Origin: an uncultured Candidatus Saccharibacteria bacterium
GTDB lineage: Bacteria; Patescibacteriota; Minisyncoccia; Phycocordibacterales; Phycocordibacteraceae
Reading direction: 5' to 3'
DNA length: 44,495 nucleotides
Assembly (NCBI GenBank): GCA_964371445.1
Contig: CAYJLK010000004.1
Span: 1 to 44,495 of the forward strand
Shown: positions 14,280 through 32,247 of the stretch, in pieces
Layout: every line of letters starts with the position of its first letter
Position numbering within the stretch: the stretch's first letter is position 1
Program-made: the position numbers and the translations under genes
Notes under the pieces: model-generated
The model's database searches: none
Seen by the model: only the letters and a program-made list of their open reading frames with translations
What the model was told of the DNA's origin: nothing

Positions 14280-14326
<47 letters not shown>

Positions 14327-14644: not shown

Positions 14645-14990
14645 ATATTGTTCTCTTTTCCTCCTGGTACTGAGATGTTTCACTTCCCAGGGTTCGCATC
14701 ATGCAAGCGTTACCTCGCAGATTCCAGTTCAAAACTGGAGGGTTTCCCCATTCGGACATCTCCGGATCAAAGGCTACAAACCGCCTCCCCGAAGCTTTTC
14801 GCAGGTTAGTCGCGTCCTTCATAGCCGTCCTAGGCCAAGGCATCCACCGTGTGCTCTTATGTCTCTCGTACGGAGACCTGCATATCACACTTCACACTAT
14901 CTGCACGTTGCCCCATGAGATAATGACTCTCGGACGCAGTAAAGCATCGCAAGAAATTATCTCACGGGGTTCAATTACCAATGTATATTC

Positions 14991-15128
14991 GCCCGTACAC
15001 TAATTTTGCCATTGCGCCTACGCTGTTCCGAGAAATCACTCTCTCAAAACCGCGTAGAGTCGCGAACGCTGAGGTGGTCAATCTCGCGATTGGCACAAGA
15101 ACAGCGATGGCAAACTTAGTGTCCGGGT
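14991..15128. repeat. ~138-nt MITE-like hairpin element, copy B (in the 23S leader)
   Basis: Imperfect terminal inverted repeats GCCCGTACACTAATTTTGCCAT/ATGGCAAACTTAGTGTCCGGGT. Homologous to 32092-32225 in the opposite orientation. Confidence 0.75.
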
Positions 15129-15160
15129 TTCGATGTCAAAAATCGGTGTCCCCGCTCGAA

Positions 15161-15190
15161 ACGAAAACCGCCCCAAGGGGCGGTTTTCGT
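15161..15190. other. GC-rich palindrome (terminator- or boxB-like) in the 23S leader
   Basis: ACGAAAACCGCCCC-AA-GGGGCGGTTTTCGT, between the 23S promoter and boxA-like GATTTTTGACA (15134-15144). Confidence 0.65.
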
Positions 15191-15267
15191 GTGCTCTGTG
15201 CACCCGAGGCCTTACGGCCTATCCGCTCCTAAAAATGGTGTTTTTCGGTTCGTAGACACGTAGAGGG

Positions 15268-15296
15268 AGTATAGACGAGGGCATCGGGGGCGTCAA
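15268..15296 (-). promoter_or_regulatory. sigma70-type promoter of the 23S-5S-tRNA unit
   Basis: TTGACG-17 nt-TATACT. Shares GCTTGACGCCCC with the 16S promoter. Confidence 0.8.
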
Positions 15297-15308
15297 GCGC
15301 ATTACAAG

Positions 15309-15342
15309 AAAGACCGCCCCGCCGGAGGGCGGGGCGGTCTTT
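15309..15342 (-). terminator. Intrinsic terminator
   Basis: AAAGACCGCCCCGCC-GGAG-GGCGGGGCGGTCTTT just downstream of the 15352 stop codon. Confidence 0.8.
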
Positions 15343-15351
15343 CAGGAGACA

Positions 15352-16035
15352 CTAGTCCTTGATTTCTGACTGGAGACGATCGAGGTAGCGAGCCGCCGAG
15401 GCTTGGCCGCCAAGCCCGAAGGCGAGACCGATCGCAAGCGATGCGGCGATGACGATGCCCTGGAAGAGCGCCTGGATCAGACCAGTCGCAACGTTCAGCT
15501 GGGAGAGCGCCGCAAGAAGGGCGAATATCCAGATGGCGTAGCGCGCGACCTTGCCGAGAAAGCCGGCCGCATGGAGCGATGCTGCCTTCGCCGAACCGAC
15601 AACGACGCGTTCCGCCGCTTCTGCGACGACTGCCGCGACGAGCAGGATCAACACCGCGACGATTACCTGAGGAAGGTAGCCGAGCACAACGTCGCTAATG
15701 AAGAGATTCACCGTCGAGAGTTTGAGCACATCAAGCGCCGCCACGAGGAAGACGATGATGAAGAACCACTTCACGAGGAAACCGAGGAACTTGCCCGACG
15801 AGAGCTCAAACCCTGCGCGAGAAAGCAGGTGCTCGAGACCGGTCGATCTAAGCGCCTGATCGATTCGCAACGAATTAACGATTTGCGAAACGACACGTCC
15901 GAGTCCGACACCGACGAGCCAACCGACAATGAAGATAACGATTGCGACGACTAAACTAGGAATGAACGCCACCAATCCGTAGAAGAGATTCTGGAAAGAC
16001 TGGCTCAATACATCCGCCCATGTGGTAAAAACCAT
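15352..16035 (-). CDS. MscS-associated TM-helix repeat membrane protein (CmpX-like)
   Basis: Repeated FIPSLVVAIVIFIVGW / YLPQVIVAVLIL helices and C-terminal GLAFGLGG. Confidence 0.8.
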   Translation of the reverse strand: MVFTTWADVLSQSFQNLFYGLVAFIPSLVVAIVIFIVGWLVGVGLGRVVSQIVNSLRIDQALRSTGLEHLLSRAGFELSSGKFLGFLVKWFFIIVFLVAALDVLKLSTVNLFISDVVLGYLPQVIVAVLILLVAAVVAEAAERVVVGSAKAASLHAAGFLGKVARYAIWIFALLAALSQLNVATGLIQALFQGIVIAASLAIGLAFGLGGQASAARYLDRLQSEIKD

Positions 16036-16110
16036 ATGAATAACGCTTTGTTTATGTGATTAATAACTCGCCGACGTACCTGCGAGCTTCTGCCTCAAAG
16101 TGTACCATTT

Positions 16111-16680
16111 TTAGAGCCCTATTTTGTCGATTAACAGGCGGTGTGGATAGTCAAAAACGTCCCGAAGAAGGCGATCATATACCCCGCGACGATACCGGAA
16201 GTCTGCGGTAGCAAACGAGGCATAGCGTATTTCGCGGCCGAGCTCAGCCTCGAGAGACCGCACCGCGCCGAGGAGCGCGCGCTCTTCGAGATTATCGCCG
16301 ACGACGAGAAGATCGATCTGCGGTTCCACGGCACTCGTGAATAGCCCCGAGAGCACGACGAGCCGCAACGTCCCGGCGCGCCGCAGGCCTCGCAGGATGT
16401 TCTGCGGCCGCACCGACGTCGTCTCGCGGATGAATGTATCGAGCGCTGCAAGATGTTCGAACCGAGAATTCACCTGGTACCGCGCGGGAGTCGCCGATCC
16501 CTTCTTGCGCAGGAGGCCGGCAGAAACAAGTTCCGTGACTTCATGCCGTGCGACATCCTTTGCAAGCTTCGTCCGCTCGGCGACTTCGGCAAGCGTGAAG
16601 CCGACGTCCTGATTGAAGAGGAAGAGTCGGAGCGTCTTCAGACGAGCGCCGGAACCGAAGATCTTCATAAGCATTTCCAT
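16111..16680 (-). CDS. Winged-HTH plus degenerate nucleotidyltransferase-like domain protein
   Basis: IFGSGARLKTLRLF..HTH N-terminus; LSGLF...QIDLLVVGD C-terminus. Start at MEMLMK, 7 nt after TACACT; the longer ORF runs through the rplL terminator. Confidence 0.7.
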   Translation of the reverse strand: MEMLMKIFGSGARLKTLRLFLFNQDVGFTLAEVAERTKLAKDVARHEVTELVSAGLLRKKGSATPARYQVNSRFEHLAALDTFIRETTSVRPQNILRGLRRAGTLRLVVLSGLFTSAVEPQIDLLVVGDNLEERALLGAVRSLEAELGREIRYASFATADFRYRRGVYDRLLRDVFDYPHRLLIDKIGL

Positions 16681-16713
16681 AGCCGCCAGTGTAGGCGCTC
16701 GCGGCATAAAACG

Positions 16714-16750
16714 CAAAACACGGTTCTGCCCTTGGCAGAACCGCGTTTTG
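16714..16750 (-). terminator. Intrinsic terminator of rplJL
   Basis: Long stem CGGTTCTGCC/GGCAGAACCG followed by TGTTTT on the minus strand, about 20 nt after the rplL stop. Confidence 0.75.
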
Positions 16751-16772
16751 TTGCGCATTCTTAATGAATGTA

Positions 16773-17138
16773 TTACTTCAAAGTCACCTTCGCTCCGGCA
16801 TCCGTGAGCTTCTTTGCGAGCTCCGCGGCATCCTCCTTTTTCATGCCCGTCTTCAGCATCGAAGGAGCACCGTCGACGAGGTCCTTGGCCTCCTTAAGAC
16901 CGAGGGCGAGCGCCTCCTTCACCGCCTTGATGACGGCAATCTTGCTCGCACCGACTTCGGTCAGCTCGACGTCGGCAGTGCTCTTCCCTTCCTCTTCAGC
17001 GGCACCCGCTGCTGCCGGACCGGCGGCTGCGACCGCGGTCGCAGAAACGCCCCACTTCTCTTCGATGGCCTTGACGAGCTGATTCAGCTCGAGGACGGTC
17101 ATCTTCTCAACTGCTTCGATTATTTGTTCCTGATTCAT
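16773..17138 (-). CDS. rplL: 50S ribosomal protein L7/L12
   Basis: [21 protein letters not shown] and KIAVIKAV...[11 protein letters not shown]. Confidence 0.98.
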
Positions 17139-17144
17139 ACGTAC

Positions 17145-17633
17145 TTATTTAGTCTTCGCCACTTCTCCGAGCGCGATTGCAAATCGCGCACGTGGTGAAT
17201 TGATAATGTTTGCGAACATACCGCGGAGCACGATCATCGGCGGTATAGTTGCGATAACCGTCACACCCTTCGCGTCAAGGAAGGCACCTTCGAACACGCC
17301 GCCGAGGAGCGAGAGTGCACCCTTCAGCTTCTTGCCGAATTCATACACACCGCGCGCCGGTGCGGTGACCTCATCGGTCGTCCACGCGACCGCGACTTCG
17401 CCCGGTAATTCCGGAATTGCTCCGGTATACCCCTGCTCTTCGAGCGCTCGACGAATGAGCGTTTTCTTCGCGACATAGTAGCGCACGCCCGCTTTCTCGA
17501 GTTCCGTGCGCAGACGCGAGGCGTCCTTCACCGTGAACTTCGTAAAGCCGACGAATGCGACCGACGACGCTTCTTTAAAAGCATCGGTTAGTTTCGCGAC
17601 GATAGCGCGTTTCTTGTCTTTTGATATTGCCAT
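17145..17633 (-). CDS. rplJ: 50S ribosomal protein L10
   Basis: MAISKDKK start, LRTEL...VAKKTL and IATIP; directly upstream of rplL. Confidence 0.95.
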   Translation of the reverse strand: MAISKDKKRAIVAKLTDAFKEASSVAFVGFTKFTVKDASRLRTELEKAGVRYYVAKKTLIRRALEEQGYTGAIPELPGEVAVAWTTDEVTAPARGVYEFGKKLKGALSLLGGVFEGAFLDAKGVTVIATIPPMIVLRGMFANIINSPRARFAIALGEVAKTK

Positions 17634-17640
17634 ACGATGT

Positions 17641-17816
17641 TTCGTACGAACGAAATAAAGGAGAGTTCGACCGTTAAGTCTCACCTCGGCAGGATTTATC
17701 CATCTTTAAACGGGTGTCCCTCGGTCATCATAAGATGATGCTCTCGGGATCCACGTTTTTGTGCCCAATCGCTTCGCTCTTGGACAAAAACGGGACCTAC
17801 TGTCTTCGGTTCGTAC
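17641..17816 (-). promoter_or_regulatory. Ribosomal protein L10 leader (autoregulatory RNA)
   Basis: ACCGAAGACAGUAGG ... UUAA ... CCUGCCGAGGU pattern upstream of rplJ, closed by GUACGAA/UUCGUAC. Promoter TGGACA-17 nt-TAGAGT at about 17824-17852. Confidence 0.85.
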
Positions 17817-17852
17817 AGGGGCTACTCTACCAAAAGAGCACTGCCCTGTCCA

Positions 17853-17957
17853 TTAGTTCATTGCGGCGCTCGCGACATGGAGCGTCACGAGAGCAACGGC
17901 GACGATGGCCGCGAACCCGGTAGAGAATTTCACAAACTCCACAAAAAAAGGGAGCAT
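17853..17957 (-). CDS. Putative 34-aa single-TM small protein
   Basis: MLPFFVEFVKFSTGFAAIVAVALVTLHVASAAMN fills the gap 16 nt after the ligase stop and is hydrophobic. Confidence 0.45.
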   Translation of the reverse strand: MLPFFVEFVKFSTGFAAIVAVALVTLHVASAAMN

Positions 17958-17973
17958 GCGTTGCTTGCGTTCG

Positions 17974-20190
17974 TTATTGTTGGGATTCATAAGCGGTAAT
18001 GGCTGAAAGAAATTCCGGATCGGTCTCAAGTATCTCTGGTGCGCGCAGGCGCAAGTCAGCGACCAGAGCGGCGGCGGCGGCCTTATCACCGGTAAGATAT
18101 ATCGCCTTCGCGAGGTCGTATGTCGCGGCGACATCGTCTGGCGCCTCCCGCACAATCGCTTCGAGGAAGAAGCGGGCGTTCTCGAAGTCGCTCACCGCTA
18201 CATAATACCCTAGCGCGCGGCGCGCCGTCTTAAGATCGCCCCGATACGTAGCCTTCCCTTGTGCCGCATCCGCGGCGGCGTCTGCTGCATTGCCTATGGC
18301 GAAATCGAGTTGTGCGAGGACGAAATACGGCTCCGAGAGTCTCGGGACAAGGGCGATATAACGGGAGAGGATATCGCGCGCGGCGGCATATCCGGCGGTA
18401 CGCCCCGTTGACCTCGGAGGATGCTCGTTCGCGTCGCTGATTGAAAGATTCGCGAGGATGTACCAAGGCTGAGAGCGCTTCGGGGAGAGCCGCAGGGCGC
18501 GTTCGAGCGCGGCAGTAAGAAGGCCGCTGTCGGAGGTAGCGCCTGGCGGCGCAAGCGAGAGAATCTGCGCGAGATAGACAGCAGTGCGCGCATCATAGGG
18601 ATACCGCTCGAACGCGTACGTAAGCAAGGCGGCGGCATTTTCGTATGCGGCGTGTAGGTCGTCGCCCGAGAGTCGGTTCACCTGTTCCTCTGTGTATATG
18701 AAATACGCGTTGTATCCGAACTCGAGGTCGGCGTAAGTGCGAAGAGAAAGACCTTTGTCCGTCGCCGCCCGCGCGCGCGGCACATCGACGATTTGGTATT
18801 GATATGCTTCAAACGCAAGCAGATTCGCCTGGAGCGGACGAGCGGCGACGGGGATGACGAGTGTAAGGATGAGCACTCCGACCGTGGCGCCTAGGACAGA
18901 CTGTGAGCTCCCGAACGCAGTCTCCGGCTTCCCCATTGCTCGATGCGCGAGTGCGAGTGCGGCAAACGCAAGCAGAAGCCAGAACGTCACCGCCGTGTCG
19001 AAGACAAAGAAATTTTGCACCGCATACACCCCACTCATGCCGAGCAGGAATACACCGTACCGATTCCCTTCTCTCCAGAGCCGCCACCCTGCGCGGGCGA
19101 CGAGCGCAATGAGCGCGAGATAGAGCAGGAGGCCGCCGATGCCGAACTGCACGAAATAGTCGAGGTAGGCGTTGTGCGAGCGGTCAAACCACTCTTCGCT
19201 CATAACGCTCGGGTCGTACACGCGATCGAACGGTACGTCGATATGCTCCGCGCCGTAGCCGAAGAGCGAATGGCTTAGCGCCTCGCGCGACACGGTACTC
19301 CAGACGAAGAGTCGACTCGAAACCGTCGGGTCGGTAAGCGAAATGGAAGCGAGGCGCTGAATCGGCTCGAACGGTACGCGCGCGAGCTCAGCCCGGAAGG
19401 CGATGAACACTCCGGTAAGCACCACGAGCGCGACGAGCGCTCCGCGCGCATATGTCCGCGCCTTCCCGCTCTTTTGCACTGCGACAAAGAGCAGAGCGAG
19501 ACCCGCAACGGTGACGAGGGCGAGCTGTGTCCCGCGCGTCGCGGTGAGGAGTATCGCGAAGAGCTGGAGCCCGGCGCCCGCATAGAGCGCGCGTCGCCAC
19601 CGCCGCCCATACTCCGGAGCCGCCGCGAGCGCCGCAAAGAATGTCATGCCGAGATAGGCGGCGAGGAAGGCTGCGTTCCCCAGCGTCCCGCCGATGCGTC
19701 CGTTCGGCTGGACGATAAACGGCAGATGTACCCCTCCTGAGACTTCAATCCACTGGAACACGAGATACACGGCGGCGAGCGTCCCTGTCCATCCCGCAAT
19801 CCTGAAGAGGCGCGGCATCCACGACGCCTCGGCAGAGAGAAGCAGGAGGTAGAAATAGCCGACGCAGACGGTGAGGGTCAAGAGCCCGTCGCCGCGCTCA
19901 AACGTCGACCAGAAACTGTGGTAGAAATCGACGCCGATGAGTGAGGCGAGGTAGGCGAGGGCGAGGAGTGCCGCCGGCAGCCATGTGCCCTTTGCCTGTA
20001 GCCTTCTCCAATAGAACGGACGTCCAGCAAGGGCGAGATAGGAGAAAAGCGCGAGCGCAATGACACCGAGGGCGCGAAGCGCGAAAATCTTGGGCGCGAG
20101 AAGCGGATACATCATTCCTTCTATATAGAAGAGCGGCAGGACTGCCGGCAGGAACAGGACCCATTCGTATACGCGCGCAATGTGTTTCAT
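17974..20190 (-). CDS. O-antigen ligase (Wzy_C)-family membrane protein with C-terminal TPR-like region
   Basis: Many TM helices; GTLGNAAFLAAY, LTATRG, SRLFVW, GYGAE and DRSHNAYLD motifs; helical C-terminus. Confidence 0.88.
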   Translation of the reverse strand: MKHIARVYEWVLFLPAVLPLFYIEGMMYPLLAPKIFALRALGVIALALFSYLALAGRPFYWRRLQAKGTWLPAALLALAYLASLIGVDFYHSFWSTFERGDGLLTLTVCVGYFYLLLLSAEASWMPRLFRIAGWTGTLAAVYLVFQWIEVSGGVHLPFIVQPNGRIGGTLGNAAFLAAYLGMTFFAALAAAPEYGRRWRRALYAGAGLQLFAILLTATRGTQLALVTVAGLALLFVAVQKSGKARTYARGALVALVVLTGVFIAFRAELARVPFEPIQRLASISLTDPTVSSRLFVWSTVSREALSHSLFGYGAEHIDVPFDRVYDPSVMSEEWFDRSHNAYLDYFVQFGIGGLLLYLALIALVARAGWRLWREGNRYGVFLLGMSGVYAVQNFFVFDTAVTFWLLLAFAALALAHRAMGKPETAFGSSQSVLGATVGVLILTLVIPVAARPLQANLLAFEAYQYQIVDVPRARAATDKGLSLRTYADLEFGYNAYFIYTEEQVNRLSGDDLHAAYENAAALLTYAFERYPYDARTAVYLAQILSLAPPGATSDSGLLTAALERALRLSPKRSQPWYILANLSISDANEHPPRSTGRTAGYAAARDILSRYIALVPRLSEPYFVLAQLDFAIGNAADAAADAAQGKATYRGDLKTARRALGYYVAVSDFENARFFLEAIVREAPDDVAATYDLAKAIYLTGDKAAAAALVADLRLRAPEILETDPEFLSAITAYESQQ

Positions 20191-20778
20191 TTACTCTCCG
20201 GGATAGTGCGCCGCGAGGAAGTCGGCGAGCGCACGACGATAGTGCGCTACCGGCTCGGCGAGGGCGGCGCGCTCGAGCGCCGTGCGCGCCGTCCTATACG
20301 CGCCGAGGCGGGCGAAGAGCTGACCCGCGTTATGCCACGCGAGGCCGGTATTCGTCGAGTCTATCGCGAGCGCTTTTTGTAAATACGCGAACTCGTTCTT
20401 CCCGTCGCCAAGTAGGTCGTACTGGTTGGCGATGCTTACCAAGAGCGTGTAATCCGGGTACGCATCGGTACCAAGGAGCGCGGCGAGACGCGCGATTTCT
20501 GTATTCGCTTTTACCGTGAGCTCGGCATTGCCGGTGTACGCTCCCTTGAAATCCCAGGAAACAATAGTGTCGGACGGGTTCACTGTGAGCGTCGCCGGCG
20601 CGATAGAGGGAATTCCCGCATCCGGCTTCGATGACGCGACTGTCTCGGTAGACGAAGCCGTTTCGGTCGCATTCTCCGGCAATACCGGCGCCTTTGCCTG
20701 GTATGACCACAAGAAAAATGCCCCTATCGCCACCATAACCCCTATGCCCGCCACTGCCCAATGTTTCTTCGTCTGCAT
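20191..20778 (-). CDS. Membrane-anchored TPR-containing protein
   Basis: N-terminal TM, then YLQKALAID..AWHNAGQLFARLGAY..ARTALERA TPR pattern. Confidence 0.75.
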   Translation of the reverse strand: MQTKKHWAVAGIGVMVAIGAFFLWSYQAKAPVLPENATETASSTETVASSKPDAGIPSIAPATLTVNPSDTIVSWDFKGAYTGNAELTVKANTEIARLAALLGTDAYPDYTLLVSIANQYDLLGDGKNEFAYLQKALAIDSTNTGLAWHNAGQLFARLGAYRTARTALERAALAEPVAHYRRALADFLAAHYPGE

Positions 20779-20805
20779 ATGCGAAGAGGATACCATATGA
20801 AAAAC

Positions 20806-20831
20806 AAAAACCACCCCAAGGGGTGGTTTTT
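20806..20831. terminator. Intrinsic terminator after the S-layer-like gene
   Basis: AAAAACCACCCC-AA-GGGGTGGTTTTT, with T-runs on both strands. Confidence 0.8.
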
Positions 20832-20882
20832 TCGTTTGCTAGGCCAATTCCCTAGCTAGGACTCTTGCGAGCCGGAGACTAG

Positions 20883-23800
20883 TTAGAACGAGACCGAGCG
20901 GTTGCCGATAGTAATCGGCATGGTCTTCACGAGGTAGTCGTTCGCCCAGTCGGTCGCTGCCGTCGCATCCGTGGCATGATCGGTCGCATCGGACCAATCA
21001 GACCAGACGAAGGAGGCATTCGAGGCCGTACCGAGAGTACCGGCGGCATCCGCAAATGCGGCAGTCGTCACCGAAGCGCTCGGCGTGGCGATGCTCACGC
21101 TGAGGTTGACACCTGCAGCGAGACCACCGACCGTACCGCGGAGCTCATACTTGCGCGTCGAGCCGGCACCGACCGTCTGGACACTGTCCGGACGGAAGTG
21201 CAGGAGACCGCTGGTGTTGCCCGCGAGAGCGTCGAGACCTCCGAGGAGGCTACTCGTCGTTGTCGCGAACGTACCTGCGAGACTTGTCGCGCCACTGGTG
21301 ACATCCCAGACCTTGAGGGTCGTGGTCGCACCGATGGTGACGGCGGCACTCTTGTTCACCGTGAACACGACCTGACCCCAGTCCACATCGCCTGCGGCGT
21401 CCGCAGTGACATTGAAGGTACCGAGGACCTGATCAGAACCGGCGTTCAAGGTCGTGCTCGGCGCTGTGCCTGCGGCAAGCGTCGGGTACGACTTACGAAG
21501 GACCATCGTGCCCTTACCGCTCGTGGCGCTCGAAGCGACATCGGCGGTATCATGGAGCGATGTGTCCGCTGTGCCGGACGAGTCAGTCGCGTTGAATCCT
21601 TCGTTGTAGTCGAGGATAACCGTGATTGACTTGCCCGAAGCCGACGGAGAGGACGCGACGGTCGGTGTGTTGACGTACACATCGAGGTCGCGGTTCGTGT
21701 CGGACGGGACGTAGAAGGTGAGGCCCGAGAACGTTGCCGTCGCGTGGGTCTGTGCGCCCGAAGAGAGCGTCAGTGCCTGCGTGGCGGTCTGCGTTGCACC
21801 GGCTTCATCCTTGTACTGGAGGACTACCGCCGAGACGGCAGTCGCCGCTTCAGCCAAGACCTTCACCTTGACCTGGTCAACGCGATACGGCGAGTACTGC
21901 GTGGTGAAGCGGAACGAGCCGACCTTCACCATAGAACTACCCGCAATCACGTTCGCATTGTCAGGCGTGGAGCCTGCGTTCTGCGCGACCGTGAGCGTTG
22001 CCGAGCCGACCGTGATGGTCTGCAAGGTTGCCGCCGTGCCGACCGAGACCGACGAGCCGGTGATAGAACCGGTACCCGTGGTGTTGGTCGAGACGGACAT
22101 TGCCGGGATGGCGCCAATGTTCGCACCGGACTTGACGTTCGCATAGACATCGAACGTCTTTGTGCCGGATGCTGCGATGGTCACGCTACCCGAGAACGAG
22201 CTCGGATCGCTGACCGTCGACTTGCTTGCACCGAACGCTGCGCCTGAATCATGATCCTTGATCATGATGTCGCTCAACGTCGAGGTGACCGCCGAAGCGA
22301 AATCAAGCTCGATAGTGTTGACGTTCGTACCTTCCGTAGAACCGGACGAGAGGGTGAAGGCGCCGAGCTTCACGTTCTGTGCGCCGGCGATCACCGTCTG
22401 GTTGCCGTAATACGAAGCCTTGGTTGCCGAGAGCGAGCTCGCGGCTACCGTGATGCTGTTACCAGTCACATCTGCAGTCGGGACATTGATGCTCGAGAGC
22501 GATACCTGTCCTTGTGCATTGCTGGAACCGACACCGAGGTAGATCTTGACCGTTTCGCCTGCCGTGAGGTTCACCGCAGTCGTCGAGGTCTTCGCGTCAC
22601 CGTAGATGTCAACCGTCGCCGTCGTACCAACCTTCACGATGAAGGACGAGCCGAAGGTGTAGTTGGTCGTGGTGCCGCCGAATTCAGCGATATCCTTGGT
22701 GGAGCCCACCTGGACACCGTTGACGAAGACCTTGCCGTTATCGAGGCCGAGGCCGCTCGAGGACGTATCTGCCGTGACGTTCAAGTTGTCGATCTTCACA
22801 TCTTCGCCGTTGGCGATAATCTTGAAGGTCGCCCACTTGACGTTGCTGGAGCCGTTTGCGACGGCTGCAGTCGGAGAATCTGCCGCGCGAGTGACAGACG
22901 GAGCCGACGTCGAGACCGAGTTAATGGTCGCGAGTGTCGCCGAGTGCGCTGCGAACGCGCCTGATATCGATGTGCCGTTGCCGCGGACCAAAACCGGCTG
23001 GTTGAGGTCCGTGTCATAGAAGATCGCATCAGCCGCATAGCGGAGCGACAGTTGGAAGGTGCGGGATGCACCGCCCACGACGTCAGCAAGAACCTTCACC
23101 ACGCGACCGCCGGTCTCGAGACGGACCGGGCTAGCCGAGATGTCGAAGGTAATCATGTTGTTCGTGTCGAACTTCGCCACTGCGCTACCGGCCATAACGC
23201 CGTCTACGTAGAGACGATAATTGACGACATCGCCGCTCTGGACGGAGCCGATAACCTTAAAGGCAATCGACTTCATCGATACTGCGCGCGTGCCGACCGT
23301 TACCGTGTTCTGCCAGACCGTGTAGTCGGCCTGCGGATCAACCGTAGAACCAGACGGAAGGGTCGTGAGACCGAGATCCACGTTCGCGAGCGTCGCTGCA
23401 GACACTGTCTGGAGACCGCCCGTGACCGGGAAGCTGACCGAGCCATCAAGCGTGCCGGTCGAATTGGCCGAAACGAGCTTGACGCCGATCTGCTGGCCCT
23501 GTGCCGAACTGTCGATATCCGAGCGGACCGAGACCGTGTAGGTCTGGCCTGCCGGAACCGAGAAGAGACCGCCTGAGTTGTTGAAGTTGAACGCGCCGCT
23601 CGATACGCCAGCAGAGTCCGTCAAACGGACCGCACCGGAATAGAGGTACACGTTCGTCATCGTCGAGTCATTGCTGACGCCGATACGATTGAACGTGAGG
23701 CTCGTGACGCTGATAGCGGCAGAGGTCGGGTTCGCGAAGGTGAACTTCGCGAGTTCCGCGGCCGCCTGTCCCTGGACGAGCGCCGCGCCGTTCGGCGAGT

Positions 23801-24344: not shown

Positions 24345-24677
24345 AACAATTGTTAAGAGTTTAAGGAGCACATAATAATCAAGTTGGATTCGCACGGAGA
24401 GCCCATTCACTTTCACACTACCCCACAGCGCACGGTATCGACCAGTGCGCCATGGGTTAGTTGGCAAGGGTTGATGTCCGTCTGTCTGACGGACTATTCA
24501 GTTATCAAAGTACGCCCTTCGGGAACAAAAGTCCCCGCAAGGACTATTGACTAGTATATAGCGGAGACAAGCGTTCCTGACGACTGACGTGTGGATAACA
24601 ACGAGGAAATAGGCACAGAAATAGAGGCCGTTTCCAGCCTTTTTATGCCCTATGTCCGAGTTACTACCACAGGGGTC

Positions 24678-24706
24678 ATACTACCAAAGACGGAGGAGAG
24701 AGTCAA
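24678..24706 (-). promoter_or_regulatory. Strong sigma70-type promoter upstream of the S-layer-like gene
   Basis: TTGACT-17 nt-TAGTAT with extended -10 TG. Confidence 0.7.
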
Positions 24707-24757
24707 AACCTACAGGCTAGCGGGATAGGTCTCTAGACACTAGGCTCTAGCGAGCGT

Positions 24758-25477
24758 CTAACGAGCTAGTTGATAGGTGCTCCAACGGCGTTCTCCCTGT
24801 TTTAGTACTGTTCCCGCCTCGATAAGGGATGCGAGCTCGCGCTGGATAGTCTTCTCAGAAACACCCCTAATGAGGGTCGAAATGTCCTTTATACTTGCTC
24901 GTCTTTTATTCTTTATAACGGACAAGATAGCTTCTCTCCTGTCCTTTATGTGACTGTCCGATACGATGTCCTTTACATGCCCCTTCCGCCTATCCGGCGA
25001 TTTCTGCGCCGATCGCTTCAACTCTGGAGACGGTCCTGCAGCCGAGAGAGGACTTCGCACGAGCGTCTTTCTGGCGATATCGGAGAGCGTCGGTGCATCA
25101 TCGAAAAAGAGTCTCGGCTCCTCATATGCCGCAACTTCTTGCAGTAATGTATGCGCTTCGCGCGTAATAAGCTCGGCATTCATTGCCGAGAGCAGACCGG
25201 CGGTGCGCGCTATAGAAAGAACGCTCGAGAGCGCGAGCAGTTCCCGCGAGAGAGCAGCGCGCGCCGTCCCCGAGGGCAGAATCGCCGCATCGACGAGACC
25301 GATTGCAATCGTATCGATCCGGTTCCGGAGCGGGAGAGACTCGGCAAAGGCCGGTGCAATAAGATGAATAGCTTTCGCGAGCCGTTCGGCCTTTTTATAT
25401 ATAAATACTCTACGTATGTCCTTTTCGAAAATGTTATTAAATATGCTTTTTTCTAGGACAAAGTCTTCTGAATGCAT
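24758..25477 (-). CDS. Protein with helical N-terminal domain and C-terminal DeoR-type HTH
   Basis: RREAILSVIK..ASIKDI..VSEKTIQRELASL..GERRWSTY. Start uncertain (25477 or 25540). Confidence 0.8.
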   Translation of the reverse strand: MHSEDFVLEKSIFNNIFEKDIRRVFIYKKAERLAKAIHLIAPAFAESLPLRNRIDTIAIGLVDAAILPSGTARAALSRELLALSSVLSIARTAGLLSAMNAELITREAHTLLQEVAAYEEPRLFFDDAPTLSDIARKTLVRSPLSAAGPSPELKRSAQKSPDRRKGHVKDIVSDSHIKDRREAILSVIKNKRRASIKDISTLIRGVSEKTIQRELASLIEAGTVLKQGERRWSTYQLAR

Positions 25478-25661
25478 ATCATTCCCTTTTGCATTTGGTT
25501 TACTGATTTCTGTACTGTGTCCTATATCTCCGTGTCTCATATCGTATAGGACAGTATACTCCCGCCCGCGCACCCTGCAACTTATATGCACCAGAGCCAC
25601 GCGGTCTCTCCACTCTCCTTATCTCTCACCTAGAGAAACCAAGTGTTACAATAGACCTATT

Positions 25662-27884
25662 ATGAGTCGAAGAAACGGCAAGAACGGGGCTGGCGCCAAG
25701 CGCGGTCGCGTGCGCGAAGAGGACGTCAAGGAATACGATGTCCTTATCCGCTGGGCCTCTGCTATCGTGCTCCTGGCCGCGGGCATCTTGCTTCTGCTTG
25801 CGGTATTTGGCGCAGCGGGTCCCGTCGGCACCACTATCTTTACCGGGAGCTATGCGGTCGTCGGCATCGGCGCATTCCTTCTGCCGATTGCACTCATCGC
25901 GGTCGGTTCCTACGCGGGCTTCGGTCGGCCGACTCTTGCCCCGTTGACGACGTCGGGCATTCTCCTCATTTGCGCTTCAGTCCTTGCCTTCGCTGGGCTC
26001 TTCCCCGATGCAGAATTCGGCGGCGTCGCCGGCACTTGGGGAGGTACCCTGCTGTCCGGATTCTTCGGCTTCTGGGGCGCGCTCGTCCTCCTCTTCGCGA
26101 CGGTCGCGATCGGTATCGCAATTGTCAGCGATATCGAAGCACTCGGCATGCTCCTGCGCGAGAATGTGCTCACGCTCTTCGACCGCATGCGCGGGTCGCG
26201 GGGCGACGATGAGTTCTCTTCAGAAGAAGATCTCGCAGTCGTCGGCGTGCCTGAAGACGATGACGACGTCTACGATGTCGAAGAAGATGAGGAAGCCCCG
26301 GCGCCCGAGCATGAACCGGTCGTGAACGTCTTTAACCGTTCTACCGGCGCGGTCGGGACGGGTATCGCGAATTTCGATGCAGAGTACGAGGCTCCTCCCC
26401 TCTCGATACTGGGTGCCGACCGCGGGAAGCCGGGCGTCGGCGATATCAAAGCGAACGCAAATATCATCAAGCGCACGTTCCAGAACTTCGGCATCAATCT
26501 CGAAATGGACGAGGTCTCGGTCGGTCCGACCGTCACGCGCTATGCCGTAAAGCCCGCCGAAGGCGTCCGCCTCTCAAAGATAGTCTCGCTTGCGAACAAT
26601 CTCGAACTCGCGCTCGCCGCACATCCGGTGCGCATCGAAGCTCCGATCCCGGGCAAGTCTCTCGTCGGTATCGAAGTGCCAAATACCGTGAAGGCAATGG
26701 TCGGTCTCGGAGGACTCCTCAATGCTCCCGAATGGAGCGGCAGCGACAAACCGCTCCTGGCCGCGCTTGGTCGGGACATCGCGGGGACGCCGCACTATGT
26801 CAACATCGCGAAGATGCCGCACGGTCTTGTCGCCGGTGCGACCGGGAGCGGAAAGTCGGTCGCCATTCACGCGCTCATCACCTCCTTGCTCTACCGCAAT
26901 GGTCCGAACCAGCTGCGCTTCATCATGATCGACCCGAAGCGTGTGGAGCTCACCGCTTATAATGGTATCCCCCACCTCCTCACCCCCGTCATCACCGATT
27001 CGAAGAAGACGATCTTTTCCTTAAAGTGGGCGGCAAAGGAGATGGAACGGCGCTACAATATCCTCGAAGCGGAACACGTGCGCGACATACATTCGTATCA
27101 CACCACTATCTTTGAACCCGCGAAGAAGCGAGGCGCCGCGGAGATGCCGGAGGCGCTCCCCTATATCGTCATCGTCATCGACGAACTCGCAGACATCATG
27201 CACACCTACCCGCGCGAGCTCGAGGCGTCTATCGTCCGCCTCGCACAGATGTCGCGCGCGGTCGGTATCCACCTCATCCTCTCCACCCAGCGCCCCTCGG
27301 TCAATGTCATCACCGGTCTTATCAAGGCGAACGTGCCGGTGCGCATGGCGCTCCAAGTCGCTTCCCAGATAGATTCCCGAACCATTCTCGACGGCGCGGG
27401 CGCGGAAACGCTTCTCGGCGCGGGCGACATGCTGTATCTCTCGAGCGATATGCAGAAGCCGGTGCGCATCCAGACCGCATTCATCAGCGAGAGCGAGGTG
27501 AAGAAGGTGGTGAGCTACATCAAGAGCCACAACGCCGGAGACCTCTCGAGCATCGATTTCGGCGGAAGCGGCGCTGGTGCAACTGGCGAAGCGAACGATG
27601 TCATCGGGCTCGTAAACGGAAGCTTCGATGACGACGATATCGATGATGATCTCTATGAAGACGCGCGAACTGCTGTAGAAGAAGCCGGACGCGCGTCAAC
27701 CTCGTACTTGCAGCGCAAACTGAAGATCGGTTACTCGCGTGCGGCGCGGCTTATGGATGTACTCGAGGCAAAGGGTGTCATCGGCGCCGCTGACGGATCG
27801 AAGCCGCGCGAGATCCTCACGACGCCCTCAGCGGTGCGACAGGAGGGTGCGTCCGCGCCGGGCGCGGATGAAGACGTATTCTAG
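25662..27884 (+). CDS. ftsK: DNA translocase FtsK/SpoIIIE
   Basis: N-terminal TMs, GATGSGKS, IDPK, IVIDELAD, STQRPS and gamma domain ASTSYLQRKLKIGYSRAARL. Start at MSRRNG after TGTTACAAT. Confidence 0.96.
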   Translation: MSRRNGKNGAGAKRGRVREEDVKEYDVLIRWASAIVLLAAGILLLLAVFGAAGPVGTTIFTGSYAVVGIGAFLLPIALIAVGSYAGFGRPTLAPLTTSGILLICASVLAFAGLFPDAEFGGVAGTWGGTLLSGFFGFWGALVLLFATVAIGIAIVSDIEALGMLLRENVLTLFDRMRGSRGDDEFSSEEDLAVVGVPEDDDDVYDVEEDEEAPAPEHEPVVNVFNRSTGAVGTGIANFDAEYEAPPLSILGADRGKPGVGDIKANANIIKRTFQNFGINLEMDEVSVGPTVTRYAVKPAEGVRLSKIVSLANNLELALAAHPVRIEAPIPGKSLVGIEVPNTVKAMVGLGGLLNAPEWSGSDKPLLAALGRDIAGTPHYVNIAKMPHGLVAGATGSGKSVAIHALITSLLYRNGPNQLRFIMIDPKRVELTAYNGIPHLLTPVITDSKKTIFSLKWAAKEMERRYNILEAEHVRDIHSYHTTIFEPAKKRGAAEMPEALPYIVIVIDELADIMHTYPRELEASIVRLAQMSRAVGIHLILSTQRPSVNVITGLIKANVPVRMALQVASQIDSRTILDGAGAETLLGAGDMLYLSSDMQKPVRIQTAFISESEVKKVVSYIKSHNAGDLSSIDFGGSGAGATGEANDVIGLVNGSFDDDDIDDDLYEDARTAVEEAGRASTSYLQRKLKIGYSRAARLMDVLEAKGVIGAADGSKPREILTTPSAVRQEGASAPGADEDVF

Positions 27885-27892
27885 CGCGCAGG

Positions 27893-28216
27893 ATGACCAA
27901 GTACCTCCTCGCCATAGTCCTCTGCATTCTCGTCGGCTATGGGCTCGTCGAGGCATGGCCGCTTCTCTCCGGTCCCGCGCTCGTCATAGACGCTCCCGCA
28001 GACATGACCCCCTTTCCGGAAGGAATCGTGAGCGTGCGGGGGCAGGCCGCGCGCGCCGCGGAGCTCACGCTCAACGGTGCGCCCCTCCTGCATGACCAGG
28101 ACGGCAACTTTTCGTCAACCCTTACCTTTCCGCGCGGAGGCTCTATACTTACCTTTGTGGCTACCGATCGCTTCGGCAGAACGGTGACTGCGACCCGCTC
28201 TATTTTCGTACCTTAA
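27893..28216 (+). CDS. Small membrane-anchored Ig-like protein
   Basis: N-terminal TM, then LTLNG..DGNF..L..G...ATDRFG beta-sandwich pattern. Confidence 0.75.
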
Positions 28217-28230
28217 TCATTTACTTCACT

Positions 28231-29277
28231 ATGGCCTTCAAAAAAGCAAAAGAGAAAGTGCTGAAGTCGGTATCCGCAGCGAGTACGGATACTAGCGAAC
28301 GGCAAAAATCGATCGAGCAGGCGCTCAAAGAGATCCGCACCAAGTTCGGCGATGAAGCTATCACAACCTACGGTGCGGGCACGCCGCAGAAGATACCGAC
28401 CGTCGCGACAGGGTCTATCGGACTCGATGCGGCGCTCGGCGTCGGCGGTCTCCCGCGAGGACGCATCATCGAGATATTCGGTCCCGAGTCTTCCGGCAAG
28501 ACGACGCTGGCGCTCCACGTCATAGCCGAAGCGCAGAAAGCCGGCGGTATCGCGGCATTCGTCGATGCCGAACACGCGCTTGATCCTGAATACGCGCGAC
28601 GCATCGGTGTGAAGCTTACCGAACTTCTCATTTCCCAGCCGGATACCGGGGAGCAGGCGCTCGATATCGTCGAAAGCCTCGTCCGCAGCGGGAACGTCGA
28701 TGTTATCGTTATCGACTCAGTCGCGGCGCTCACCCCGAAGGATGAAATAGAGGGTGAAATGGGCCAACAACACATGGGTAAGCAGGCGCGGCTCATGAGC
28801 CAAGCGCTCAGGAAGCTGACTGCTATCGCGGCGCGAAGCAAGACCATCGTCATCTTCATCAACCAGATCCGCATGCAAATCGGCGTTATGTTCGGCAACC
28901 CGGAAACGACGCCGGGCGGCAAGGCGCTGAAGTTCTATACCTCGGTGCGCCTGGATATCCGCCGCATCGCTTCAATAAAGAAGGGCGAAGAGGTCGTGGG
29001 CGGGCGCGTGCGGGTGAAGGTGGTGAAGAACAAGGTTGCTGCGCCGTTTAAGACGACCGAGTTCGACCTCTTGTATAACGAAGGCATCAGCCGCGAAGGC
29101 GAGCTCATCGCACTTGGTGAGAAATATGACCTCGTTGCAAAGTCCGGCAATACGTACAAAATGGGCGAGACCAAGCTCGGCGTCGGCTACGACGCCTCGC
29201 GCACCTTCCTCCGCGATAATAAGGACGTCTCAAAAGAGCTCCTGAAACAAATCAAAGAGAAGCTCACGGTGAGTTAG
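28231..29277 (+). CDS. recA: Recombinase RecA
   Basis: [32 protein letters not shown] and GGKALKFY. Confidence 0.99.
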
Positions 29278-29603
29278 GCGCGAGAAGGAGTGAAGAAGCG
29301 GGCAATCTCGCGCGCGAGGAAGAGGAGTGAAGTGAGCGTGAGTACGACGAGCGCCTGCACGATGAGGCGTGTGTGTGTAAAGGCGTACCAGAGATACTCA
29401 ACGCGATCGAAAAGCCCGCCCGGCCCATTCTCGAATACCTTCGCCACCCAGACCTCCTTCCCGATTCCCCAGAGCCCGGCGACGCCGGCGAGTACGGCAA
29501 GTGTCACGGTCGATACAATAAGCAAAAGGATGCGGATGAGGCGCACGCGGCGCATCACGTTCTGTTCGATAGTCGTGGCTTCAATCATATTTTTGTTCAT
29601 CAT
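29274..29603 (-). CDS. Small two-TM protein, possible anti-sigma factor
   Basis: Overlaps the ECF sigma 3' end. Short cytoplasmic IEQNVMRRV helix, then two hydrophobic segments. Confidence 0.65.
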
Positions 29604-30159
29604 ACGCCTCTTTAAATAATTTCTTGGCGCGGTGCACGCGCGTCTTCACCGCGGGTATCGAGAGCTGTTCTGCAGCCGCAATCTCCTCTTGGGTCTTGCC
29701 CTCGATAAACTGCAAGCGCAGTATCTTAGCGGCCGCCTCGGGGAGTTTGGCGAGCGCGGCAATGACTTCATTCCTGATCGAGAGGTCTTCGAGAAACTCT
29801 GCCCGTGAATCGGGGAGCGACTCGTAGTGCTCCGGCTCAAGCTGGACCGTCTTCTCCCACGTCTTGCGCTGCGCAGTGTACCTGGTATACGCGACGCGGT
29901 TGAGGATCGTGTACGCCCACGACGAGAAGCTCGCGCCTTCTTGTTCGTGATACTTGTCGGCATAGAGGTACATCTTGGTGAAGGCGTCCTGCACCGCCTC
30001 CTCGGCATCTTCAGGGCTCTTGAGTATCGTCTTCGCGCGTCGCAGAAGCGCTGCCTCGTAGCGGCGGACGAGGATGGAGAAGAGGTCCGGGTCCTGTCTC
30101 GAGCGCGCAAGCAGCTCCGCGTCCGTGAACGCTGACGAGTCCGCGGTTGAAAAAGCCAT
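29581..30159 (-). CDS. ECF-type RNA polymerase sigma factor
   Basis: Region 2 DAEEAVQDAF..FSSWAYTI and region 4 EGKTQEEIA..VKTRVHRAK. Confidence 0.93.
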   Translation of the reverse strand: MAFSTADSSAFTDAELLARSRQDPDLFSILVRRYEAALLRRAKTILKSPEDAEEAVQDAFTKMYLYADKYHEQEGASFSSWAYTILNRVAYTRYTAQRKTWEKTVQLEPEHYESLPDSRAEFLEDLSIRNEVIAALAKLPEAAAKILRLQFIEGKTQEEIAAAEQLSIPAVKTRVHRAKKLFKEAYDEQKYD

Positions 30160-30270
30160 AATGTCTGCTAGCATACACTAATCCGCCTTTGGCGGTACTT
30201 TTTATAACCGTTTGCTTGGGCTTTAGGTTCCCTGCCTGCTGCCTTCTGCTTACTGCTCACTTCTATAACT

Positions 30271-30846
30271 ATGGCCGTATTAAGCTACAACGAAATTCTC
30301 AAAGGATGCGTCATCGACTACAATGGCGAGCCGTACGAGGTGCTCTCGGCACACATCTTCCGCATGCAACAGAGGAAGCCGGTCAATCAGACCAAGCTCC
30401 GTCAACTCGTGGGCGGCAAGGTCCTCGAGATCTCCTTCCATCAGAATGAGACCGTTACTGAAGCGGATGTGGGTTCGATGCAGGCGCAGTATCTCTACAC
30501 CAATCGTGATGAGAGTTGGTTTGCTGAAGAAGGAAATGCGAAAAATCGTTTCTCGTTCCCTGAAGACTCGGTGCACGACAAGGTGCAGTGGTTGACCCCG
30601 AACAGCGTCGTGGATGTGCTCACGTATGAAGAAAAACCAATGACGATAAAAATCCCCGTAAAAGTGGAGTTGGAAGTAAAAGACGCGCCCCCGGCGGTCA
30701 AGGGCAACACCGTCTCAGGCGGCTCCAAGCTCGCCCTCTTGGTCACTGGCGCCAAGGTGAATGTCCCTCTCTTCATCAACTCGGGCGACATCATTAGAAT
30801 AAATACGGATACTGGAGAATATACGGAACGTGTAGAAAAAGCATAG
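30271..30846 (+). CDS. efp: Elongation factor P (atypical tip loop)
   Basis: QYLY, PPAVKGNTVSGGSK and VPLFINSGDIIRINTDTGEYTERV. Loop reads RMQQRKP instead of KPGKG. Confidence 0.93.
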   Translation: MAVLSYNEILKGCVIDYNGEPYEVLSAHIFRMQQRKPVNQTKLRQLVGGKVLEISFHQNETVTEADVGSMQAQYLYTNRDESWFAEEGNAKNRFSFPEDSVHDKVQWLTPNSVVDVLTYEEKPMTIKIPVKVELEVKDAPPAVKGNTVSGGSKLALLVTGAKVNVPLFINSGDIIRINTDTGEYTERVEKA

Positions 30847-30858
30847 GCAACCGTGCAA

Positions 30859-30890
30859 ACAAAAAGCCCCGCTTTCGCGGGGCTTTTTGT
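30859..30890. terminator. Bidirectional terminator between efp and rpsR
   Basis: ACAAAAAGCCCCGC-TTTC-GCGGGGCTTTTTGT between convergent genes. Confidence 0.88.
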
Positions 30891-31097
30891 TTATGCAGCG
30901 ATATAGGGCATGAGCGCCATGTAGCGCGCGCGCTTCACCGCTTGCATCACCTCGCGCTGCTTGCCCGCAGGAATGCCGGTGCGCTTCTTGGAAAGCATCT
31001 TTGCATGCGGATTGGTGAACAGCTTCAAATATGCGACATCCTTATAGTCGATAAATTTCTTGACTTCAATCTCTTCGCGTTCAGCTTGGTACGCCAT
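30891..31097 (-). CDS. rpsR: 30S ribosomal protein S18
   Basis: IDYKD..L..F, RTG..KQR..AVKRARYMALMPY. Confidence 0.96.
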   Translation of the reverse strand: MAYQAEREEIEVKKFIDYKDVAYLKLFTNPHAKMLSKKRTGIPAGKQREVMQAVKRARYMALMPYIAA

Positions 31098-31107
31098 ACT
31101 TCAATAA

Positions 31108-31554
31108 TTAAAAAGGAATATCCTCTGGATTAATCTCCTCGTCCGGATACTTGATCGCCTCGCCCTCGCTCGAAGCCGGCTGTTCATCGGCCCCTCGACT
31201 GGCGCTCGGAACGCCCCCGCCTTTGGCGTCCGCGCCGAACTGGAAATTATCCACGATGATCTCCGTGCGATAATTCTTCTTCCCGGTCTCCTTGTCGTCC
31301 CACGCGCGCGTCTGGAGGCGCCCTTCGACGAAGATCGGACGGCCCTTCTTCACGTATTGCGCGATGACTTCTGCGGTACGGCCGAATGCGACTACGTTGT
31401 GGAATTCGGTCGCCTCCTGCTTCGCGCCGCTCTTATCCTTGTAAGTACGGTTCGTCGCCATGCCGAAGTTCGCGACCTGACTGCCTGAAGGGAGCGCCTT
31501 CAGCTCAGGATCGCGCGTCAGATTGCCGTAGAGAAATACTTTGTTGAGATACAT
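31108..31554 (-). CDS. ssb: Single-stranded DNA-binding protein
   Basis: LNKVFLYGNLTRDPE, VEGRLQTRAW and C-terminal DIPF. Confidence 0.98.
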   Translation of the reverse strand: MYLNKVFLYGNLTRDPELKALPSGSQVANFGMATNRTYKDKSGAKQEATEFHNVVAFGRTAEVIAQYVKKGRPIFVEGRLQTRAWDDKETGKKNYRTEIIVDNFQFGADAKGGGVPSASRGADEQPASSEGEAIKYPDEEINPEDIPF

Positions 31555-31561
31555 GGTTCTA

Positions 31562-32053
31562 TTATACAACGACGTTCTCGAGCGCGGCGTCGAGCTCCGC
31601 TCCGGCAGCCGCTTCCGGATCCTCCGTGCGTTCCGGCGTCTTCATAGAAATCTCGCGCATCTCGACTGAGTGGCGAGCGGCATCCTTTGTTGTGAGGAGG
31701 TCGATGAAGCGGACGATATGCTTATTCGCGTTCGCTGCCGCAAGAATATCCGCGTGATTCGACGCAGATGCCTCATATACGATCCAAGAAAAGTACGCTG
31801 AATCGAAATCGCGGCGACCGGCGACCTCCTGGCGGGAGATTGTATAGGCGAGCTGGATCTTTTCAGGTTCGCCTTCAGCGACGAGCGTCCCCTTCTCGAG
31901 GATGCTCTCCCGTATCGCCTGGTAGGCTTTCTTCACCTCCTCGGTCGGGAGTTCAGGGTCGAGATGGAAGCCGAGCTCGTAGACGCGCGACTCGCCGCCA
32001 ACGTCATCAAGCGCCTCATCAGCGCGCATCTCTATATCCAGATCTTTCGCCAT
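31562..32053 (-). CDS. rpsF: 30S ribosomal protein S6 (acidic terminal extensions)
   Basis: VYELGF..P and LAYTI motifs; canonical rpsF-ssb-rpsR order. Confidence 0.9.
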   Translation of the reverse strand: MAKDLDIEMRADEALDDVGGESRVYELGFHLDPELPTEEVKKAYQAIRESILEKGTLVAEGEPEKIQLAYTISRQEVAGRRDFDSAYFSWIVYEASASNHADILAAANANKHIVRFIDLLTTKDAARHSVEMREISMKTPERTEDPEAAAGAELDAALENVVV

Positions 32054-32091
32054 AATTCCCGCATCCTAGCACGTGATTTTGACGCTCGCAA

Positions 32092-32225
32092 GCCCGGACA
32101 CTCATTTCGGCATTGCTTTCTTGTGTCATACGTACGGTGACTTTTCGGCTCTTTTAAAGCAGTCCGCGTCTTCCTGCTGATCTGCACAAAAAGCAATGAC
32201 ACGATGCCGAATTGAGTGTACGGGC
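32092..32225. repeat. ~134-nt MITE-like hairpin element, copy A (tatD-rpsF intergenic)
   Basis: GCCCGGACACTCATTTCGGCAT...ATGCCGAATTGAGTGTACGGGC inverted ends. Homologous to 14991-15128. Confidence 0.75.
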
Positions 32226-32247
32226 AAGGGCGGTTTTACGGGCGGAA

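Follow-up and report, generated by a model that had tools for sequence, protein, structure and literature searches.

A patchy family of short hairpin elements in Parcubacteria, probably non-autonomous mobile DNA, with copies at ribosomal RNA and tRNA genes

This study concerns two imperfect hairpins in a 44,495-nucleotide (nt) stretch of bacterial DNA (C4:1-44495 of the genome G000; hereafter the window), which were read exactly where a first-pass annotation of the same DNA had placed them: copy A at 32092-32225 on the + strand, and copy B at 14991-15128 on the - strand. It is highly probable that they are two of five copies in G000 of a non-autonomous DNA element of the miniature inverted-repeat transposable element (MITE) kind, which is widespread but patchy in Parcubacteria/Paceibacteria. 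Most features of a MITE were indeed found: the elements are short and non-coding, have terminal inverted repeats and a fixed 4-bp duplication, and their sites are empty in related species. The annotation had already proposed that the hairpins are non-autonomous mobile DNA, one of them lodged in the leader of the 23S rRNA, and the duplications, the empty sites and the patchy, multi-copy distribution bear it out.

The genome under study, G000, consists of 745,727 bp in 23 contigs, with ~56% G+C and a completeness of 98.9%; all other G-numbers designate genomes of relatives. Its methionyl-tRNA synthetase is closest to that of a 'Candidatus Kaiserbacteria' metagenome-assembled genome (MAG), at 73% identity, and the remaining near matches are all from Parcubacteria or Patescibacteria; G000 is therefore a bacterium of the Candidate Phyla Radiation (CPR). 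It is to be noted that four of its short contigs (C11, C15, C22 and C23) have 62-70% G+C against ~56% elsewhere, and show signs of bin contamination.

Target duplications and empty sites

With the core defined as CCC...GGG, the four bases on either side of it were compared in 42 copies, which came from 17 genomes. A direct 4-bp repeat was perfect in 20 of the 42 copies and agreed at three of the four positions in 9, while control offsets (n = 1008) gave such repeats at 0.7% and 6.2%, respectively; a perfect 5-nt repeat was found in none of the 42. The targets are loosely palindromic and mostly of the form Y-W-W-R (CAAG/CTTG, TAAA/TTTA, TATA and TATG). The hairpins are insertions that duplicate a 4-bp target on entry.

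The complementary evidence is the empty site, which was found in sister species for all four copies so examined. A scan of G000 for the element's termini yielded, besides A and B, two more full copies, namely C (C2:83994-84132, + strand) and D (C5:34833-34973, - strand). A covariance model, R1, was built from these four, which score 114-134 bits with it. The model added copy E (C3:65350-65491; 43 bits), built in the same way and flanked by CAAG on both sides, bringing the total from the two scans to five. A possible partial copy at C4:~47110 has only the first 10 nt and a short inner motif in common with the element.

The core of copy A, CCCGGACACT...AGTGTACGGG, is 132 bp long (32093-32224, + strand; 121.5 bits with R1), and CAAG stands on both sides of it, upstream at 32089-32092 and downstream at 32225-32228, where the annotation had suspected a duplication. 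Four of five relatives (G102, G109, G129 and G006) lack 135-170 nt at this place, and G102 and G109 have a single CAAG there; in the fifth relative, only one flank was matched. The 136-bp core of copy B (14992-15127, - strand; 126.6 bits) lies between CGAA upstream (15129-15132) and CGAA downstream (14988-14991). Two of five relatives have its site empty, G124 without 171 nt and G109 without 159 nt. The matches of G102, G124 and G109 end at query base 372, which is the last base before the element, and the assemblies of G006 and G129 have the two flanks on separate contigs. The relatives read ...TTGACATA-CGAA-TACGC..., with CGAA only once; since it is single at the aligned empty sites, copy B carries one extra A before its core. 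This base, at 15128 between the upstream CGAA and the core, is the one-nucleotide offset that had been noticed earlier.

Copy C is missing from G124, which runs on through the site without query bases 393-529, and from G109, which lacks 142 nt; other DNA is present there in G102, G129 and G006, the extra ~1 kb in G102 being an open reading frame (ORF) of 349 amino acids (aa). For copy D, the distance from the upstream gene to the tRNA-Phe gene is 150-159 nt in G000 as against 19-31 nt in nine species (G109, G129, G006, G141, G086, G066, G028, G068 and G140), and it is 92-116 nt in G124, G076 and G102. This copy, the most telling of all, lies 5 nt past the stop codon of a gene for a 93-aa membrane protein, and at its other end the duplicated CTTG constitutes positions 2-5 of the tRNA-Phe, position 1 being the terminal G of the element itself. 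Thus, the insertion hit the tRNA gene, and the duplication restored its 5' end. A copy in G013 likewise adjoins the 5' end of a tRNA.

Public sequencing runs were also consulted for copy B. In a DNA run from a different study (X5), a contig covering 14919-15277 with one difference has copy B at the same site. Contigs of another DNA run (X6) skip 243 or 268 nt around it; as these are only 85% alike to the window, they are relatives' DNA and not precise excisions. In the RNA run X15, contigs covered 14631-14878 only, which is mature 23S rRNA, largely from relatives.

Distribution and anatomy of the hairpin family

Besides the search for empty sites, the annotation had suggested a covariance scan of the genome and its relatives and a check against Rfam. 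The scan with R1 indeed found additional copies in G000 and beyond. In a draw of 61 genomes of relatives, G000 included, 12 had matches at E<=0.01, among them 7 of the 36 species that share the genus with G000; at E<=1e-5, matches were obtained in 19 of 151 genomes of the order (18 of 132 genera). A genome may hold up to ~10 copies, as does G243, in which several arm variants coexist. Typical elements measure ~127-143 bp, with shorter and longer variants. Neither window copy matches an Rfam family at the gathering score, and in permissive scans of A and B the sole match that overlapped an element reached 16.7 bits against a threshold of 101. Among the papers listed for MITEs in connection with 23S intervening sequences or Patescibacteria, in the library searched, were a review of eukaryote rDNA and papers on arthropod mites, and none describes this hairpin family.

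Two sequence probes gave a further view of the distribution. With as many as 3 mismatches permitted, an arm 21-mer of G049 was found 22 times in that genome, as against 0 for a control pattern; these matches make up 8 paired copies, of which six measure ~132 nt and the other two 226 and 286 nt, and 6 solo arms. Near-identical arms of this kind point to recent activity outside G000. In a set of 185,579 species genomes, the exact 20-mer of another subfamily was found at 55 loci, almost exclusively in Parcubacteria MAGs (Kaiser-, Zambryski-, Taylor- and Nomurabacteria, and Paceibacterota). An inverted pair 130-136 nt apart was present at 23 of these loci, and two were miniature forms of 57 and 72 nt; viral contigs had 0 matches to the same 20-mer.

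The element can be written as a-X-Y...X'-Y'-a', in which two terminal inverted arms of 22-25 nt enclose two interleaved pairs of inner repeats. X follows arm a directly, while X' ends ~8 nt before a'; conversely, Y begins ~8 nt after a, while Y' adjoins a'. In copy A, arm a (32092-32113) pairs with a' (32204-32225), X (32114-32122) with X' (32187-32195), and Y (32123-32128) with Y' (32197-32202), the last pairing crossing X:X'; the whole 3' side thus occupies 32187-32225. In copy B, on the - strand, arm a (15128-15107), X (15106-15098) and Y (15096-15091) make up the 5' side (15091-15128), and X' (15029-15021), Y' (15019-15014) and a' (15012-14991) the 3' side (14991-15029).

This structure was scored on an oriented alignment of 39 copies, with shuffled and slid-partner controls. 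The outer stem a:a' (22 pairs) was paired in 94.9% of cells, with both-side changes at 18 pairs; the values were 63.1% for X:X' (9 pairs, all 9 with both-side changes) and 80.1% for Y:Y' (6 pairs, all 6 with such changes). Over the whole structure, 84.9% of cells were paired, compared with 71.6% in shuffles, none of 500 of which reached the observed value, and 34-45% when the partners were slid. Covariation followed suit, with a score of 0.424 for the stated structure, 0.184 for shuffles and no more than 0.123 on sliding; in the stem, it is higher than in any of the 500 shuffles, and the family is thus no product of chance. This covariation suggests that the pairing of the arms is itself under selection. 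Between A and B alone, the mean column identity is 75%, the ends being conserved and the interiors unalignable; together with two further G000 copies, they have both-side changes in 9 of 26 consensus pairs, in agreement with the compensatory stem differences reported at first. Both copies likewise show the G/A mismatch noted in the annotation (pair 6) and, 8 nt deeper in the stem, a second position that is unpaired (pair 14). Position 6 is unpaired in 15 of the 39 copies, as a purine-purine mismatch in G000 and near relatives.

The crossing arrangement of the inner repeats was compared with a nested one in 41 copies; it scored higher in 35 and lower in 2. In a test of the two helices together, the mean score was 11.6 for matched halves and 4.3 (sd 5.4) when the 3' part was taken from another genome's copy; an 8-mer test of X:X' pairing, in which the arm boundaries were badly set, gave no difference from shuffles. 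X and Y are not separated by a linker, so that X:X' and Y:Y' are mutually exclusive, and in minimum-energy folds some copies indeed take the one and some the other. The interleaved arrangement is identical on both strands. The centre is unconserved, and the miniature forms of 57-72 nt and the long forms of 226 and 286 nt indicate that it is dispensable. As RNA, copy A folds into one long hairpin of -52.9 kcal/mol (z -5.37) and copy B into one of -65.8 kcal/mol (z -7.26); for neither copy was any of 200 shuffles as stable, and the reverse strands of both fold equally well.

Hairpins at ribosomal RNA and tRNA genes

The two window copies differ in their relation to transcription, as the annotation had stated. 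Copy A lies antisense in the spacer between tatD (32248-33048, - strand) and rpsF (31562-32053, - strand), upstream of ssb. Copy B lies in sense orientation in the leader of the 23S rRNA gene (11949-14870, - strand; RF02541, 2066.7 bits, model positions 1-2925), 121 nt 5' of the gene. Upstream of copy B are a hairpin followed by a T-run and a promoter-like site, TTGACG-17-TATACT (15268-15296, - strand), which agrees with the consensus at 10 of 12 positions and is a consensus match only. As copy B is downstream of this site, it would plausibly be co-transcribed within the 23S precursor if the site is used. A consensus promoter scan near copy B reported this site alone. A motif TTGAC(A/G) stands 3-6 nt before both insertions (15139-15134, - strand, and 32079-32084, + strand) and is partly conserved in relatives, with at least one mismatch in G124, G102 and G109; at copy B, the insertion may have split an ancestral 23S promoter, of which this motif would be the -35 box.

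The relation to rRNA is closer still in G056, in which all five R1 matches fall in one 2.2-kb stretch, identified by Rfam as the 5' two-thirds of a 23S gene with its leader. One copy is in the leader, and four are inside the gene, at approximately positions 274, 599, 925 and 1175 of the E. coli 23S rRNA as judged by alignment with the window's 23S gene and that of E. coli. At 925, the element was inserted cleanly and is flanked by duplicated TAAA; at 274 and 1175, it stands in place of a native hairpin or of its tip. Near position 552, there is also a hairpin of ~125 nt, missed by R1, whose arms are diverged but family-like. Positions ~550 and ~1170 of E. coli correspond to helices 25 and 45. 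A location within a 23S helix, such as intervening sequences (IVSs) occupy, was found in G056; the 23S gene of G000 has no such insert. At 14517-14571 of the window, or ~300-354 of its own 23S gene, there is a 22-nt hairpin, ACCTCACTCTTCGGAGTGGGGG, where G056 has its copy near 274; its ends are like the outer ends of the element, so that an old copy may have left it behind, unless it is simply the native helix. Among the 25 element-positive genomes, 13 have a detectable 23S gene, and copies inside it were seen in G056 only; an rRNA location is the exception among the copies of this family.

The usual sites of 23S IVSs are helices 9, 25 and 45, and their origin is described as unclear, 'remnants of a transposition event' being one hypothesis (PMC4990558, available text). 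In the CPR, 82% of 23S genes carry inserts, many of them short, non-intron and unexplained, at known IVS sites (PMC11270868, available text). The words 'hairpin', 'inverted repeat' and 'palindrom' do not occur in the available text of the latter, and a dispersed genomic population of such elements is not described in the available text of either paper.

The present family thus offers a concrete and testable case on where 23S IVSs come from, as one and the same hairpin element occupies ordinary loci with duplications and empty sites, an rRNA leader, tRNA 5' ends and 23S helices. The element also accounts for length variation of rRNA operons and for assembly breaks in these MAGs, and it constitutes a repeat family in genomes of ~0.7 Mb that are otherwise poor in mobile elements. 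As to the course of events, a transposase supplied in trans would make a 4-nt staggered cut; the inserted element would then be co-transcribed with its surroundings in either orientation and fold into a long imperfect hairpin. Such a hairpin could be cut out of the transcript by RNase III, the gene of which is present in G000 (C1:124994-125377). By analogy with 23S IVSs, removal by RNase III is probably what happens, and it would make understandable that copies are tolerated in a 23S leader, against the 5' ends of tRNA genes, and within 23S helices, where they would behave as classical IVSs do.

A few observations on the surroundings may be added here. The rRNA genes of the window are unlinked and all on the - strand, at 1-891 (the start of the 16S gene), 10158-10379 and 11949-14870 (23S). 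The order on that strand is unusual, namely 23S, 5S, tRNA-Met, eight protein genes over ~9.3 kb, and then the start of 16S; the 16S gene is cut by the contig end, and none lies upstream of the 23S gene. The eight genes between 5S/tRNA-Met and 16S include an FtsW/RodA-like gene, glycosyltransferases and SecDF. The 1.57-kb gap from the 3' end of the 23S Rfam match (11949) to the 5S gene (10379) contains a 161-aa ORF for a LAGLIDADG homing endonuclease (10845-11330, - strand; PF00961, E 1.9e-9). Elsewhere in the window, a class I aminoacyl-tRNA synthetase of the Ile/Val/Leu type (39526-42885, - strand; 1119 aa) has a histidine phosphatase domain (His_Phos_1) inserted at residues 496-663 (E 5e-31).

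Candidate movers and comparison with known systems

Several points weigh against a MITE of the ordinary kind, the foremost being that no autonomous element with the same ends and a transposase gene was found. PF01609, PF13701, PF13359, PF00665, PF07282 and PF05635 were searched in element-rich genomes or in the order, and none of the matches has ends like the arms. DDE_Tnp_1 and DDE_Tnp_1_4 were not found in the multi-copy genomes G243, G215, G013 and G049, nor was DDE_Tnp_4 in G000, G049, G243, G013 and G056. DDE_Tnp_1_4 occurs in just 4 of 401 genomes of the order, in none of them with arm-like ends; the rve matches of G049 and G056 are IS481-like genes, also devoid of arm-like ends; and the solo arms of G049, considered as ends of a longer element, were rejected as truncated copies. 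Furthermore, the five copies of G000 are old and diverged, as is evident from A and B, so that activity in this genome is not recent, and the processing by RNase III is an inference, drawn by analogy with IVSs and the Correia elements. Lastly, covariation at 18 of 22 arm positions and the coexistence of arm variants in one genome are unexpected from a transposase that reads the sequence of double-stranded DNA; the covariation implies that pairing itself has been selected, which the ordinary MITE model does not explain.

Other candidates for a partner fared no better. The 34 window ORFs scanned include no transposase, as had been stated at the outset, and 5 of them have no Pfam match; a trans-acting transposase appears to be missing from G000. 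An IS1380-like contig of 1955 bp (G262:C27), which was the sole match to DDE_Tnp_1 and DDE_Tnp_1_4 in the multi-copy genomes G243, G262, G215, G013 and G049, was discarded for its low GC and different ends; given the low GC and a neighboring Bacteroides-type gene for an extracytoplasmic function (ECF) sigma factor, recognized by eye, it is probably bin contamination. Among the genomes searched, a TnpB domain was found in G262 only. The 23S_rRNA_IVP protein (PF05635), considered as cargo or partner, was rejected, as it is absent from G000, G041 and G049, and its genes are flanked by unrelated, TAG-rich inverted repeats. Within the order, such genes are widespread: 80 of 151 genomes carry them, and one genome may give as many as 9 matches. 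Inverted repeats, many of short TAG-containing units, bracket 8 of 12 inspected loci (L138-L149), with arms of 31 nt at L148; these loci represent a second, ORF-carrying type of hairpin element, unrelated in sequence to the present family.

Arm covariation, the conserved mismatch and the interleaved repeats, left unexplained by a simple end-binding transposase, keep a structure-dependent, single-strand step open; the interleaving and the covariation point to a step that is as yet undescribed. We entertain, as a bold idea that is rather doubtful, that these hairpins are the mobile form of rRNA IVSs and move as a folded single strand recognized by its shape, by means of no known insertion-sequence transposase. 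The shape may comprise the 22-bp stem, the conserved purine-purine mismatch and the two mutually exclusive extension helices. A novel enzyme comes to mind because genomes with near-identical copies hold no transposase with matching ends. If the hairpins are the mobile form of IVSs, a single family would give rise both to dispersed copies with target duplications and to inserts in 23S helices, and the proposal of 1990, by which IVSs are what transposition left behind, would thereby be settled.

A known enzyme could also act on folded single-stranded DNA, namely a RAYT-type transposase (IS200-like, HUH/Y1) encoded elsewhere in the genome, and the element would then be REPIN-like, with two inverted conserved units around a spacer. 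Of the 151 genomes of the order, 91 indeed encode Y1_Tnp homologues of ~220-300 aa, and one genome may have as many as 13 of them. The only one in G000 is a protein of 221 aa (C1:77911-78573; 24.9 bits against a cut-off of 23), in which an H-x-H motif was identified by eye; its gene has that of a LamG-like surface protein on one side, and on the other what, by eye, appear to be a gene for a LamG-type surface protein and gap. The arm covariation would suit an enzyme that reads hairpins, and Y1 genes are present in 15 of 19 element-positive as against 76 of 132 element-negative genomes. This enrichment is weak, however, and G243 (~10 copies), G262 and G041 carry elements but gave no Y1_Tnp match. 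Nor are the Y1 genes flanked by elements, there being none on C1 of G000 and the nearest being kilobases away in G049, G056 and G013; moreover, Y1 transposition is understood not to generate variable 4-bp target duplications. Overall, we regard a REPIN-like element as improbable, well behind the MITE-like reading.

Still less credence can be given to a structured RNA of the host, such as a processing signal or regulatory leader, that is retained for its function and merely looks repeated. Two of the five G000 copies do lie in sense in the leaders of 23S and tRNA-Phe, and the structural covariation is strong; nonetheless, the absence of the copies from the orthologous leaders and spacers of sister species largely refutes this explanation, and the flanking duplications, the occurrence in both orientations at unrelated loci and even inside rRNA helices, and the lack of an Rfam match are all contrary to it. 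Least probable of all, to the point of being negligible, are attC-like sites of an integron-type system, or substrates of another site-specific recombinase: the layout is similar (an imperfect palindrome of like length, with conserved ends, variable centre and conserved unpaired bases), but the copies stand alone at scattered loci and form no cassette arrays, no integrase gene beside such hairpins with promoterless ORFs between them was seen at the loci examined, the sole cluster (G056) lies inside a 23S gene, the variable 4-bp duplications do not fit conservative site-specific recombination, and no integrase was found in the general scan of the 34 window ORFs, in which attC core motifs were not searched. 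Of the original likening to attC or REP as folded single-stranded DNA sites, only the resemblance thus stands, as the duplications fit neither mechanism, although the arm covariation does argue that pairing matters.

The MITE-like reading is best placed by comparison with the remaining known systems. The DDE transposons of the IS1380 and piggyBac types duplicate a 4-bp target that is AT-rich in its centre, and their ends begin with several consecutive C residues. It was because of this resemblance, in both duplication and ends, that IS1380-type transposases were searched, although their rarity in the order and the lack of matching ends there set the family apart. The Correia elements of Neisseria, ERIC and the Rickettsia palindromic elements are non-coding, multi-copy sequences of ~100-150 bp, with terminal inverted repeats and a short target duplication. 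Like other bacterial MITEs, they are transcribed together with adjacent genes and form hairpins in the RNA, and RNase III cleaves the transcripts of the Correia elements. The present family, for which a partner insertion sequence is not known, differs from those elements in its sequence, its CPR hosts, its 4-bp Y-W-W-R target, its interleaved inner repeats, and its insertion into rRNA helices and at tRNA 5' ends. With the 23S IVSs, finally, it shares the stem-loop with terminal inverted repeats, the sporadic distribution and the location in 23S helices; it is distinguished from them in that most of its copies reside outside the rRNA genes, where they are accompanied by target duplications and empty sites.

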